From positions 4,509,237-4,573,236 of the forward strand of contig NC_057748.1 in the NCBI RefSeq assembly GCF_004010195.1: a DNA stretch of 64,000 bases. Direction: 5' to 3'. Made by a program: the position numbers and the translations under genes. Below are positions 18,155 through 63,910 of the stretch, in pieces. Positions within the stretch are counted from its first letter, which is position 1. The number at the start of each line of letters is the position of its first letter. Source of the stretch: Chiloscyllium plagiosum (lineage: Eukaryota). The notes under the pieces were generated by a model that saw nothing but the letters and a program-made list of their open reading frames with translations, had not been told where the DNA came from and ran no database searches.

Positions 18155-21100
18155 TCAGCTCAGGGTGAGCCTGTCAAACAGGTACTCTCCCAGGCCATTC
18201 TCAGGGGCTCCCAGTCTCTTCAGGTTGGTGATGTGATCTCCCAGCTTCTTGATCATCTTCACTTGCTCATCCAAGTAGTGCCTCTCCAGGAAGTCACACA
18301 GCTGGAAGGAGAGACAAAGATTAGCCTCAAGGAATAAAAAAAAAGTGACCTCCCATTACTGATGTGACCATCAGCACATTGTGGTAAGGGAGATGTGAAC
18401 CCAGGGGATGCCTTTTGAAATATTTTTTCAGCCTGCAGGAGGCAGTTAGAAAATAATTGGATTCCCCCCCCAGGGAGAACACAAACAGATCATTTCCTGC
18501 CAAGTTTGAGAGAAAATTAGAAACTTACGTGAGGGTCAGTGTGGCCAGAGGAGAGTTTGTGCAGATCCAGCAGACTCTGGTTCACATCCTTCTCCATCTG
18601 CAGAGCTCTCTGCATTGCCTCCAGACCATTGCCCCACTCATCCTGCTCTGGCTTCTGGAGGGAGGGAAAGCAGGAGAAAAAAAACCCAGCTCATCTCAGA
18701 CAGGTGGATCACAGGCTACATCAGTTCATTATCCCCCAAGCATCACAAGAGTTAAATTTCAGGCCAATTGTTTTACTGACTTGTTTAGATGTCACTGTTC
18801 TTAGAGCTTAAGTTTCAGAAACATACTGTGAAAGTGCCTTTTAAAAATATTATAATCTAAGTGTACAAAGTGTGCACCAATGGCAGTAATTCCTTGCTCT
18901 ACCATTTTGTAAATTTGGATCCTTTTGACCAGCCAATTAGAAACATCTTATATGCAGAAAGGAGATGCTGCTACCTTCTACTCCTGTAAACTCTTACCAC
19001 AGATAAAGAGATGTTGGAATTGACATCTGGGGTTATATAGTTTAATCATTCTTACATGGGAAATTTGCACTCCATCCTGTATTCTAGATCATCCCAATTG
19101 CTGTTTCAATGAATTGTTTGTGAACCACCTCCAATTCACACAGCATTTATTCAAACCTGACCCTAAACAGGTTGCGTGATACCAGTTAGTTGGAGTTCAC
19201 ACAAAACATTAAAGTCCTCAAAGTTTACAGAAACCAACCTTGACATCCTGCAGGAGGACTCTGCCTCCACGTTTATTCTGGAATTCCATCAGTTTTTCAG
19301 CATGTTCCCGTTCCTCATGGGACTGCTCCTTGAAGAACTCAGCAAAGTGACGCAGGGCAACATCATCCCGGTCAAAGTAAGAGGCCTGCAAGTGGGAAGC
19401 AAGTCTCAATCTCATCCATGGCTCAATCACAAACTAACCCATTCACCATATTAACTTCAATTAATTGAAAAAAGGTGAAATCAGAGTGACAAAAGCAGAA
19501 AGTCATTATCTCCTGTGGATTGTGGCCTAAGGAGCAGACATTTTTCTGAAAGAGTAAAACAGAATCAAGATGTCAACTGCAACCCTTGGCCTGTATCTTA
19601 AGGAGACAGTGTGCTAGTGTGGCATATAGTATTGTGAAGGCCCCAGTTGGGGACAGCTATTAGATATGCCTGCACATCAGGAACCCTCTTGCTCAGTACT
19701 AGAACCACTGAGGTCATTGACCAATAAATAGGCCATGAACAGGTTGACTAACGGTTTTTTTAAAAAAAAAATCAGCCAGCTACCTCACCTAGCTGAATAA
19801 CCAATGACCTACCATCCACTCTACACAGAATGCTGACTGCGATTTAAATAATTCACATTTCAAGTGAAAAAAGTGCACATTTAACCACCTTTCTTCACAG
19901 TGATTAATAAACTAACTTCATCTTCAATAGAGAGACAACAGCTTGGTTATTTGGGCAACTTTTTAAAAAACAATACATTTGGTTTAAGAGAACATTTTTC
20001 AAAAAAAAATAAAAAAAAATAGATGGGTTATAACCAAAGAATTAAGACAATACCTGTCTCTACAGTCAGGAGACTAATTACACTGAACAGTTACAGTAAA
20101 CCAAGGAAGTCTCACCTAAGGGCCAGTTATAACTCAAGGAAGGCCTAAAATTTCAATACAGTTTCAGGGTGAAGTGTGTCCACAGCAGGGGAAAAGACAA
20201 CATTGTCAAGAGACCAGATATCCCAACCCAATCTAGTCCCACTTGCCACCACCCAGCCCATTTCCCTACAAACCCTCCCTGTTCATACACCCATCCAAAT
20301 GACTTAAATGTTACGATTGTACCAGCCTCCTCCACTTCCTCCAGCAGCTCATTCCATACATGTACCACCCTCTGAAAAAAGTTGCCCCTTGGTTCTCATA
20401 TCTTTCCCCGCTCACCCTAAACCTATGTCCTCTAGTTCTAGGCTCCCAACCCCAGGGAAAAGACTTTGCCTATTTATCCTATCCATGTCCCTCAATTTTG
20501 TAAATCTCTACAAGGTCACTCCTAAGCCTCTGACACTCCAGGGGAAAAACAGCCCCAGCCTGTTCATCCTCCAACCCTAGCAACATCCTTGTAGATGTTT
20601 TCTGAACCCTTTCGAGTTTCACAACATCTTTCCAGTAGAAAGGAGACCAGAATTGCACACAACATTCCAACAGTAGCCTAACCAATGTCCTGTACAGCTA
20701 CAACATGACCTCCCAACTCCTGTACTCCATTCTCTGACCAATAAAGGAAAGCATACCAAGCACCTTCACTATCCTACCTGTGACTCCACATTCAAGGAGC
20801 TATGAAACAGCACTCCAAGGTTTTTGTTCAGAACACTCCCGAGGACCTTACCATTAAGGTGTTTAAGTCCTGCTAAGATTTGCTGTTTCCATGCTGTACA
20901 TCACTAATGACTCTTCTAGGAGAAGAGTGAGGGCTAGAGATCAGAGCTGAAAAGGTGTTGCTGGAAAAATGCAGCAGGTCAGGCAGCATCCAAGCAGCAG
21001 GAGAATTGACATTTCAGGCATGAACCCTTCTTCAGGAAGGGCTCATGCCCAAAACATAGATTCTCTTGCTCCTTGGATGCTGCCTGACCTGCTGCACTTT

Positions 21101-21337
21101 TCCAGCAACACATTTTCATCTCTATGATTCTAGATAATTTACTCAAGCATATAACCAAGGAAATTCCTAGATGCTCCACACAGCCATATTCAAGTGTTAA
21201 TTCTAAAACAGAACCTTCAAAACCACAAGCCTCACCATAGAGAGGTAAACATAGGAGGAATAGAGCTCCAGGTTGATCTGCTTGTTAACAGCATCCTCAC
21301 AGTCCTTGTGGTAGTTCTGACAAACTTGGGAGGCCAT
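18155..21337 (-). CDS. FTH1-like: Ferritin heavy/middle-type subunit, copy A, intact, 173 aa
   Basis: Exons 21337-21236, 19385-19239, 18654-18529 and 18301-18155, all GT-AG and phase 0. Protein [34 protein letters not shown]...[11 protein letters not shown]...ALQMEK...LDEQVK...FDRLTLS*. Equivalents of ferroxidase residues E27, Y34, E61, E62, H65, E107 and Q141 are present. Confidence 0.95.
20210..20912 (-). mobile_element. CR1 fragment in intron 1 of ferritin A
   Basis: Peptides CVQFWSP...[16 protein letters not shown] and VWNELLEE. Confidence 0.85.
20915..21123. mobile_element. Palindromic Penelope-derived element in intron 1 of ferritin A
   Basis: Inverted arms gtgttgctggaaaa..gcagcaggtcaggcagcatccaag and their reverse complement. 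Confidence 0.75.
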
Positions 21338-62632: not shown

Positions 62633-63910
62633 TCAGCTCAGGGTGAGCCTGTCAAACAGGTACTCTCCCAGGCCATTCTCAGGGGCTCCCAGTCTCTTCA
62701 GGTTGGTGATGTGATCTCCCAGCTTCTTGATCATCTTCACTTGCTCATCCAAGTAGTGCCTCTCCAGGAAGTCACACAGCTGGAAGAGGAGACAAAGATT
62801 AGCCTCAAGGAACAAACCATGCACCTGAGTGAGACATCCCATTACAGATGTGACGATCACCACCACATTGTTCCCCTCCCTCACCACAATCAGGGATGCC
62901 TTCTGAAATGTTTCTGGATTTCAGCTGGCAGGAGGCAGGTAGATTAGAATTGGAATTGCCCCCCAGGGAGTAAACAGATTTCCTTACAAACTTTTGGAGA
63001 GAAAAAAAGAAACTCACATGAGGGTCCATGTGGTCAGAGGAGAGTTTGTGCAGATCCAGCAGACTCTGGTTCACATCCTTCTCCATCTGCAGAGCTCTCT
63101 GCATTGCCTCCAGACCATTGCCCCACTCATCCTGCTCTGGCTTCTGGAGGAAGGGAAGTCAGGAGAGAAAAACCAGCTCATCTCAGACAGGTGGCTCACA
63201 GGCTACATCTGATCAGTTCATTATTCCAACAAACATTGCAAGAGTTGGATTTCTGGCCAATTGTTTTACTGACTCCTTTAGTTTTCACTGTTCCTTGAGC
63301 TGAAGGAATTTTAGAAGATCCTACTGTAAAACTGTTTTAAGATACTACAATCCAAATGTATCTAAAAATATGCACCAATGGTGGTCATTCCTTGCTGTAC
63401 TGTTCTATCCATTTCAATCCTTTTGCCCAGCCCATTAGAAACATCTTGGAGATGCAGAAAGGAGATGCTGCTACCTTCCACCACTATGGATTCTCTCATT
63501 CTTACCTCATTACTAGGGGTGTTGGAATTGACATCTGAGGTTATATAGTTGATCATTCTTCCATGGGAATGTTGCTCTCCATCCAGTATTCTGGATCATC
63601 CCAATTGCCTATTGCTGTTTCACAAGTGTTAACTAGTTTTTTTTAAATTCAATGCATTATTTTGGTGAGCAATTTATTCAAATCTGGAGACAATAAACAG
63701 GTTGCGTGATACAGTCAATTTGCATTCACACAAAATAAACCTTCAAAGTTTACAGAAGCCAACCTTGACATCCTGCAGGATGACTCGGCCTCCACGTTTA
63801 TTCTGGAATGCCATCAGTTTCTCAGCGTGTTCCCGTTCCTCATGGAACTGCTCCTTGAAGAACTCAGCAAAGTGACACAGGGCAACATCATCCCGGTCAA
63901 AGTAAGAGGA
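62633..63910 (-). CDS. FTH1-like: Ferritin copy G, exons 2-4 (exon 1 beyond the window)
   Basis: Exons 63910-63764, 63143-63018 and 62779-62633 are open with GT-AG sites; variants EQFHEE, RVIL and SSDHMD. Confidence 0.9.

Follow-up and report, generated by a model that had tools for sequence, protein, structure and literature searches.

Clustered, intron-containing ferritin genes have been described in several vertebrates. The Greenland shark preprint (bioRxiv 10.1101/2024.09.09.611499) reports more than 100 clustered copies, conserved with the white shark, ovary-specific in expression and annotated as FTH1 or FTL; the terms "IRE" and "gene conversion" do not occur in its main text. The amphibian Fth cluster at the Gys1-Ruvbl2 locus comprises seven genes in Pleurodeles and four in Xenopus tropicalis, and some of its copies are reported to be nearly silent in liver (PMC13003380). 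In the hadal snailfish, the 14 copies of fthl27 are described as a teleost expansion that is recent and species-specific, with expression in most tissues and a link to ROS tolerance (PMC10746142). With clusters of this kind already published for newt, Xenopus, snailfish and sharks, the array that we analyzed in a 64-kb stretch of Chiloscyllium plagiosum DNA (hereafter, the window) is not the vertebrate oddity that the initial annotation took it for. It resembles the amphibian cluster in its tandem arrangement, its introns and its lineage-specific duplications, although the amphibian copies are much older and more diverged, and its neighbor is a PTPRH-like gene, with Gys1 and Ruvbl2 outside the window. 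It shares tandem arrangement and apparent dosage amplification with snailfish fthl27, but the shark lineage is ancient, with multiple copies in every order sampled. The mammalian FTHL17 family is likewise multi-copy, and weak signs of gene conversion have been reported for it (PMC2724270). FTHL17 genes are X-linked, intronless and retro-derived, whereas the shark units keep their three introns.

Seven ferritin units lie head to tail on the minus strand at 18155..63910, spaced 6.7-8.1 kb apart. This agrees with the number and head-to-tail order given initially, but not with the description of every unit as four-exon, since all that U2 retains is exon 3 with a shortened exon 4; across the array we count seven copies each of exons 3 and 4, six of exon 2 and five of exon 1. 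Exons 2 (E 2.9e-12) and 3 (E 1.2e-05) match Pfam Ferritin (PF00210) above the cut-off, exons 1 and 4 only below it (E 0.005). Four units carry open frames of 173 codons in four coding exons with three GT-AG introns, the structure reported for vertebrate cytosolic ferritin genes (PMC4117605): U1 (18155..21337; exons 21337-21236, 19385-19239, 18654-18529 and 18301-18155), U4 (40642..42925; exons 42925-42824, 41919-41773, 41154-41029 and 40788-40642), U5 (47716..49747; exons 49747-49646, 48731-48585, 48225-48100 and 47862-47716) and U6 (55409..58249; exons 58249-58148, 56679-56533, 55958-55833 and 55555-55409). U1 is 98% identical to the C. plagiosum ferritin P0007, which PDB ferritins match at E ~1e-85, and the upstream region of U4 contains an inserted interspersed repeat (43142-43470). 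Two units are dead, as first proposed. U2 (26299..27151; exon 3 27151-27026, truncated exon 4 26433-26299) has lost its promoter and exons 1 and 2; one interspersed repeat lies at the deletion junction (27261-27574), and intron 3 contains a second (26520-26842). U3 (33980..36495; exons 36495-36394, ~35266-35119, 34495-34370 and 34124-33980) is a four-exon pseudogene: exons 2 and 4 contain frameshifts and stop codons, and the acceptor of exon 4 reads AT. U7 (62633..63910; exons 63910-63764, 63143-63018 and 62779-62633) is open in exons 2-4, its exon 1 lying past the window end. Whole units of ~7-8 kb, introns and spacers included, were duplicated at different times.

A 500-N gap (14870..15369) separates the array from the final coding exon of a PTPRH-like (receptor tyrosine phosphatase H-like) gene (14179..14319, minus strand; 6/6 matches named PTPRH or PTPRH-like, 74-93% identity), the single exon of that gene within the window. 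The sequence between this gap and U1 (15370..18049) is inter-unit spacer: 15370-16384 matches 59957-60902, and 15370-15819 matches 31248-31690. Because the spacer ends at the gap at a point that in other units lies ~1.7 kb upstream of the next ATG, the array probably continues beyond U1 into the gap. Pfam scans of 18 non-ferritin frames and of 150 frames drawn from 177 non-repeat frames found no neighboring gene in 1-14000 above the cut-off, and none of GYS1, RUVBL2 and NUCB1; matches to PAP_central (E 0.006), DUF678 and zinc-ribbon families, all below the cut-off, were dismissed. In human, PTPRH and FTL are both located on 19q. Among the matches listed, L-like shark ferritins of three species lie on contigs equal in size to those of the array class.

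The ferroxidase ligands E24, E58, E59, H62, E104 and Q138 (numbering after PMC4117605) are all present in the four complete copies, as are the 5/5 encoded within the window in U7. This upholds the earlier proposal of a dosage-amplified, ferroxidase-competent family and supports assignment of the predicted proteins to a competent (H/M-type) lineage. E59 occurs in every copy; K59 marks a separate shark L-like class, with no member within the 64-kb window. The copies resemble the ferritin M subunit of teleosts and amphibians (PDB 1mfr; PMC4117605) in their four exons, length (173-176 aa), ferroxidase ligands and nucleation residues E54 and E61, the latter present in 5/5 ORF-bearing copies but not diagnostic, as skate H also has both. 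By score, M chains come out slightly ahead of H chains (286 versus 278-283 bits), and residue 141 is Met in the array copies versus Asp in frog M. By inspection, the N-terminus shows no evident signal peptide. The subunits are 96-98% identical to one another; pN is lower than pS in all six pairs of complete copies, and overall pN/pS is ~0.38 (pN 0.020, pS 0.052). Some of the amino acid changes nonetheless appear damaging. U5 carries H115Y, D168G, L117H and M67T, U6 carries G161D, and U7 carries S56F; H115Y, G161D and S56F fall at residues invariant in 62/62 comparison ferritins, and D168G at one kept in 61/62. The four units called intact do have open frames and GT-AG introns, but the word should be read as ORF-intact only; conserved residues are hit in U5 and U6, as they are in U7.

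Phylogenetic reconstruction united 24 array-type sequences, all elasmobranch and including a white shark copy, in one clade (support 100/99), which places the array copies, as far as sequence can tell, in an elasmobranch-only ferritin lineage apart from shark FTH1, rather than under the FTH1 and FTL labels of the Greenland shark preprint. In the comparison with H, M and L chains that had been suggested, an H clade of 11 sequences (99/99), with skate fth1a and elephant shark, leaves out the window copies, which join L and shark L-like sequences only on a weak branch (83/80). The AU test does not reject their placement as sister to H (p-AU 0.175). A more conventional shark M-like protein (P0198, P0199) falls outside the array clade. 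For these trees, we removed the ray protein P0100 (mispredicted N-terminus), kept only the C-terminal module of P0003 from among the chimeric gene models and trimmed four invertebrate outgroups to their last module. Of the matches listed for a query taken from the array window itself, and hence biased toward its own class, 112/120 are elasmobranch and multi-copy; for the white shark, 7/10 listed lie on one 33.1-Mb contig. Paralogs group by shark order, with four label changes (the minimum) against a shuffled mean of 31.5, in a tree whose bootstrap is still short of full convergence; this grouping fits rapid turnover as well as conversion. Two skate sequences on a long branch inside the carpet-shark clade are probably an artifact. 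Automatic names ("heavy chain A/B", "oocyte isoform", FTH1/FTL) are no guide to orthology for array genes. By analogy with the Greenland shark cluster, the array is most likely part of the ovary-expressed expansion reported there.

We observed a marked difference in uniformity between the exons and introns of the array. Pooling columns over the five ORF-bearing units, which treats as independent the columns of copies with common ancestry, four-fold sites vary at 3/46 versus 99/347 intron columns (p 6e-4), two-fold sites at 4/74 versus 61/347 intron columns with a transition (p 0.007), and the 3' UTR at 7/97 versus 55/187 columns of downstream DNA (p 8e-6). Exons at silent sites are 2-4 times more uniform than introns. 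Pairwise tests, with small numbers of silent sites, reach p<0.05 in just 2/10 pairs. Exon 2 is less homogenized, with 6/42 silently variable codons versus 1/34 in exon 3 and 1/45 in exon 4. Even the dead U2 differs from U4 at only 2/256 exon columns versus 23/127 intron-3 columns. The homogenized stretch corresponds approximately to the mRNA, exons and proximal UTRs, while introns and spacers drift. This pattern, with far less variation at silent sites and in the 3' UTR than in introns and downstream DNA, points to gene conversion confined to exons and superimposed on the birth and death of units, and conversion among dosage-favored genes is a known pattern (PMC3924837).

Our searches found no iron-responsive element in the array units. 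The canonical IRE pattern has no match in the array and one outside it, at 11784; Rfam gave no match at the gathering score and, by E-value, four weak matches upstream of U1 and nine over the array, none to an IRE family. A sub-threshold Rfam match to RRE lies on an interspersed repeat and was taken as chance. Relaxed IRE loops gave six minus-strand matches, three of them within the array, and none recurs from one unit to another. The units are thus predicted to be IRE-free, from searches run without a known-IRE control and with the 5' end placed by a TATA-like motif, whereas 5/5 salmon ferritin genes are reported to carry an IRE (PMC4117605). Motif scanning places a putative promoter and short 5' UTR of U1 at 21338..21630 (minus strand), with a TATA-like GGTAAATA at -64, CCAAT boxes and two TGACCT half-sites near -263 and -287; GATAAA occurs at -75 in U3-U6. 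The 3' UTR of U1 (18050..18154, minus strand) has ATTAAA ~80 nt past the stop, and similarity between copies falls ~100-105 nt past the stop, ~20-25 nt beyond this first poly(A) signal. Matches to the cytoplasmic polyadenylation element lie mostly past the first ATTAAA. In the literature, with subscription papers and supplements thinly covered, searches on IRE-less shark ferritin and on conversion in the array turned up the Greenland shark preprint alone, which is weak evidence that no other account exists.

That allelic haplotigs were stitched in tandem, the result that had been named as fatal to the array, is hardly to be credited. Three N gaps lie in the array (38113-38925, 44190-44480 and 52076-52875), isolating U4 and U5 each between gaps, and these two differ at only 44/1293 intron columns; yet U1-U2-U3 and U6-U7 are contiguous, introns are 11-19% apart in 12/15 pairs (U2 excluded; ungapped-block values, as simple alignment is inflated by misalignment near insertions), individual copies have private insertions and deletions, and the other listed shark assemblies also hold multi-copy ferritins. 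Given the contiguous units and the intron divergence, the array as a whole is, on this reading of the assembly, no product of stitched haplotigs. The three U4/U5/U7 pairs are only 3.4-5.9% apart, and among these units, which form a young clade (100/98), one or two at most could be allelic. These differing ages, the two dead units among seven, the excess of pS over pN and the grouping of paralogs by lineage would all be expected under classical birth-and-death in which strong purifying selection alone, with no conversion, keeps exons alike. We regard this as rather unlikely. Its strict expectation, silent divergence close to intron divergence, fails: uniformity extends to the 3' UTR and to silent sites, U2, a remnant with no promoter, has exons just as uniform as those found in live copies, and damaging amino acid changes are tolerated. 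The birth-and-death flux proposed at the outset is real in that units arose and died at different times, but alone it leaves exon uniformity unexplained. Selection on the UTR and silent sites is a possible alternative source of uniformity, although selection seems too weak to hold silent sites, given the pN/pS and the four changes at invariant or near-invariant residues. That elasmobranchs have a dedicated IRE-free ferritin lineage for eggs, convergent with the yolk ferritins of invertebrates, whose copies are homogenized by RNA-templated (cDNA) conversion in the oocyte, seems quite improbable as a whole. Its first half, an IRE-free ovary ferritin, comes on its own close to an even chance; the RNA-templated half is a long shot, because DNA-level conversion combined with UTR selection would look much the same.

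Two further readings concern function. Selected diversification of the tandem copies for combinatorial 24-mers, suggested when the array was first annotated, draws on the assembly of ferritin as a heteropolymer of 24 subunits (PMC11719527); any two of the four complete copies differ at 3-11 residues, and pN/pS is high for a ferritin. None of these differences touches a ferroxidase ligand, however, the changes described above strike conserved residues, homogenization opposes stable variants, and one-to-one orthologous variants across orders were not seen. We thus find the suggestion weak and such diversification very improbable; several copy-specific changes look like decay instead. Co-expression of the copies would likely lead to mixed assemblies, but a partner with functional meaning would be the L-like class. 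Use of the array in somatic oxidative-stress protection, or in iron withholding during infection, rather than in egg provisioning is also unlikely. It can draw on snailfish fthl27, high in most tissues, whose overexpression is reported to lower ROS in cultured cells (PMC10746142), and on expression of the newt cluster genes in liver (PMC13003380); against it, the sole shark expression statement found, in the preprint, is ovary-specific, and IRE loss would abolish normal somatic iron control (PMC4117605).

We therefore favor, as reasonably probable, a dosage array for iron-independent bulk synthesis, probably in egg iron loading, of which these units would be the carpet shark (Orectolobiformes) piece of an elasmobranch ferritin expansion. 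Units would be gained and lost through unequal crossing-over, while short-tract gene conversion, where similarity is still high, would keep the mRNA-coding parts uniform. Selection would act on total output and not on each copy, so that single copies could tolerate damaging changes. With no IRE, IRP proteins would not hold back translation at low cytosolic iron, and output would track copy number and transcription. Bulk ferritin made in the ovary or oocyte could then provide a safe maternal iron store for very large, yolky eggs. Both ovary expression in C. plagiosum and orthology to the scaffold-30 cluster of the Greenland shark are inferred, the former by analogy with that cluster, and a location of the protein in yolk is conjectural. 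Schistosoma ferritin mRNAs are reported to be IRE-less, and the yolk ferritins of Schistosoma and Lymnaea offer a parallel for possible egg use, although theirs are invertebrate and non-orthologous, so that any likeness would be convergent (via PMC1488847). In zebrafish follicles, fth1 is reported as the most abundant ferritin transcript (PMC1488847), so an array of this kind is not required for ovarian ferritin.

As an expected piece of an already reported shark-wide expansion, the array is an unsurprising find; its importance is modest, as that expansion so far has one paragraph of description in the preprint. What this analysis contributes is the elasmobranch-only, ferroxidase-competent lineage, the lack of any IRE found, the exon-confined uniformity and the apparently damaging copy-specific changes. 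The contrast between exons and introns makes the array a handy system for studying how conversion keeps dosage arrays uniform. If its genes are both IRE-free and ovary-specific, they would represent a vertebrate case of ferritin freed from iron control and amplified for egg provisioning.

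Comparison of the window with itself revealed a long repeat spanning 15370-64000 and interrupted by four N gaps. Searching the window with each exon of the left-most gene recovered five copies of exon 1, six of exon 2 and seven each of exons 3 and 4, all on the minus strand, and thus seven units (U1-U7, left to right) whose last exons are spaced by 6.7-8.1 kb; their ferritin identity is given by matches to Pfam Ferritin and to solved ferritins. U1, U4, U5 and U6 carry open 173-codon frames with GT-AG introns, and U7 is complete except for exon 1, which falls outside the window. 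U3 is disrupted by frameshifts and a defective splice acceptor, and U2 is reduced to exon 3 plus an incomplete exon 4. The initial annotation, which proposed seven head-to-tail four-exon units, was therefore right about their number but not about the structure of U2. A SINE-like repeat (27261-27574; the family name is our presumption) lies exactly at the junction of the deletion that removed the U2 promoter and exons 1-2. Insertions private to single units, whose element classes we presume, are a retrotransposon-like piece (28900-30300), the 3' end of a LINE-like element beside a gap, with 262 nt duplicated in tandem (44481-45590), and a 220-nt segment upstream of U5 (50761-50981) that is an additional copy of sequence otherwise following the 3' UTR.

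The array is real and not wholly a product of stitched haplotigs: U1-U2-U3 and U6-U7 each lie on gap-free sequence, and for 12 of 15 pairs intron divergence, taken over clean ungapped blocks, is 11-19%. The remaining divergences (3.4-5.9%) are among U4, U5 and U7, a supported young clade. Because U4 and U5 are each isolated between gaps, one or two members of this clade may be allelic; the array comprises at least five distinct loci. Sequence to the right of a 500-N gap (14870-15369) starts within an inter-unit spacer, so additional units may flank the array on both sides.

A PTPRH-like gene on the same (minus) strand has its last coding exon downstream of the array (14319-14179) and none of its other exons in the window. 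Among the matches listed, PTPRH-like and ferritin sequences apparently share a contig in epaulette shark (1/1 ferritin rows), whale shark (1/4), zebra shark (11/12) and horn shark (5/5), and a catshark gene model (P0084) has the WPD-loop exon of a PTPRH-like phosphatase spliced onto ferritin exon 2; the linkage therefore appears conserved. That the array is nested in a late PTPRH intron seems to us unlikely; alternatively, the remainder of the gene may be hidden in, or misplaced by, the 500-N gap. This flank also contains a 1.4-kb minisatellite of ~20-nt units (12500-13930) and a second degenerate repeat (14550-14869), where the left contig stops.

Among the 120 proteins listed as matches to exon 4, 112 were elasmobranch ferritins, many per species (30 of the 120 from sawshark alone). 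U1 shares 98% identity with a protein of Chiloscyllium plagiosum. In a 69-row tree, U1, U4, U5 and U6 fall inside a purely elasmobranch clade of 24 rows (support 100/99), separate from the heavy chain (H) clade (99/99, including skate fth1a), the tetrapod light chain (L) clade, an L-like shark class and a conventional shark protein resembling middle chain (M) ferritin. Placed against vertebrate H, M and L ferritins, the copies stand outside the H clade, but the topology test is compatible with their being sister to H (p-AU 0.175) and the backbone has no firm order, so their origin may lie with either H or M/L chains. In a 68-row shark tree, paralogues cluster by order (4 label changes, the minimum, versus a shuffled mean of 31.5); because its rows were gathered by a search that started from this window, the tree may lack distant classes. 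All ferroxidase ligands listed for salmon ferritins (PMC4117605) are present in the four complete copies, and U7 has the five encoded within the window, which supports the proposal of a family predicted to be ferroxidase-competent. The L-like class has Lys at residue 59.

The proteins of the five ORF-bearing units (U1, U4, U5, U6, U7) stop at …LTLS, three residues short of the …LTLGESD type. Both C-termini are found among other carpet sharks, so the cluster includes sub-families between which homogenisation is incomplete. Many public shark models among the matches listed (P0001, P0002, P0003, P0005, P0010, P0025, P0106, P0107) are chimeras spliced across adjacent units, probably annotation artefacts of a tandem array, with read-through splicing as the alternative. 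A few shark ferritins of the array type (P0033, P0077, P0086, P0089, P0095) lie on large chromosomes off the cluster and may be retrocopies, as expected of germ-line-expressed genes.

Complete copies differ by 3-11 residues, and co-expressed subunits this similar would probably mix in one shell. Nothing suggests that the variants were selected for the combinatorial heteropolymers that had been envisaged. The natural partner in an H/L-type heteropolymer would be the L-like shark class, a second multi-copy class that has lost a ferroxidase ligand in the manner of L chains (K59; P0091, P0092, P0098, P0081, P0102, P0117). Among the matches listed, it apparently shares contigs with the array class in three species; it is absent from the window.

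All five units with exon 1 have what we take to be a TATA-like box 64-75 nt upstream of the ATG, with presumptive CCAAT boxes further upstream; this position would imply that the 5' UTR is about 35-50 nt long. No iron-responsive element (IRE) was found anywhere in the array by pattern search and Rfam, applied without a positive control and with putative transcript starts. All five salmon ferritin genes are reported to have an IRE (PMC4117605). Divergence is unusually low (1-6%) in a block located 225-275 nt before the ATG (about 21560-21630, with counterparts upstream of U3, U5 and U6). Two TGACCT half-sites and a CCAAT box surround this block, and one may speculate that it is a nuclear-receptor-responsive enhancer; in U4, it is set apart from the core promoter by an interspersed repeat.

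Across the five ORF-bearing units, only 3 of 46 four-fold sites vary, versus 99 of 347 intron columns (p = 6e-4), as do 4 of 74 two-fold sites versus 61 of 347 in introns (p = 0.007) and 7 of 97 3' UTR columns versus 55 of 187 immediately downstream (p = 8e-6). Old pairs diverge by 0-8% in the first 100 nt past the stop versus 9-29% in later bins, with the step ~20-25 nt beyond the first ATTAAA. U1, U4 and U7 have the same exon 4 sequence, and intron 3 of U1 differs from that of U4 and of U7 at 33 of 127 columns. Pairwise tests are weaker (p<0.05 in 2 of 10 pairs), and uniformity is lower in exon 2 than in exons 3 and 4. Under strict birth-and-death, silent sites should diverge as introns do; the flux initially proposed is evident for whole units but is insufficient alone. 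Selection on silent sites could also keep exons uniform, but it fits badly with a pN/pS of ~0.38 and with changes at residues invariant in 62 of 62 comparison rows, hand-picked from named matches (H115Y in U5, G161D in U6, S56F in U7), or kept in 61 of them (D168G in U5). The sequences are best read as unit-level birth and death, which would set copy number, combined with gene conversion confined to exons, which would keep copies uniform; such a pattern is known for genes in which dosage is favoured (PMC3924837). Between copies, intron edges differ somewhat less than interiors, compatible with DNA conversion tracts or splice-site constraint, and the template may have been DNA or cDNA.

Arrays of this kind are already known from sharks, amphibians and snailfish. 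The Greenland shark has 155 FTL and 179 FTH1 copies, ~80% of them in three clusters syntenic with white shark, and its largest ferritin cluster shows ovary-specific expression; the preprint's main text mentions neither IREs nor gene conversion (10.1101/2024.09.09.611499). Our literature searches turned up no account of IRE loss, or of gene conversion, in the ferritins of sharks. Clustered ferritin genes at the Gys1-Ruvbl2 locus number seven in newt and four in Xenopus (PMC13003380), and the hadal snailfish has 14 fthl27 copies, mostly tandem (PMC10746142). Vertebrate ovaries are described as rich in ferritin, which also occurs in amphibian and snail eggs (PMC1488847). Anatomy, ligand residues, the lack of a detectable IRE and the contrast between exons and introns come directly from the sequence; we infer conversion, orthology to the reported shark cluster and an ovarian role. 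On balance we favor a dosage array of exon-homogenised, ferroxidase-competent ferritin, free of IREs and made in quantity, most likely to store iron in the ovary and egg.
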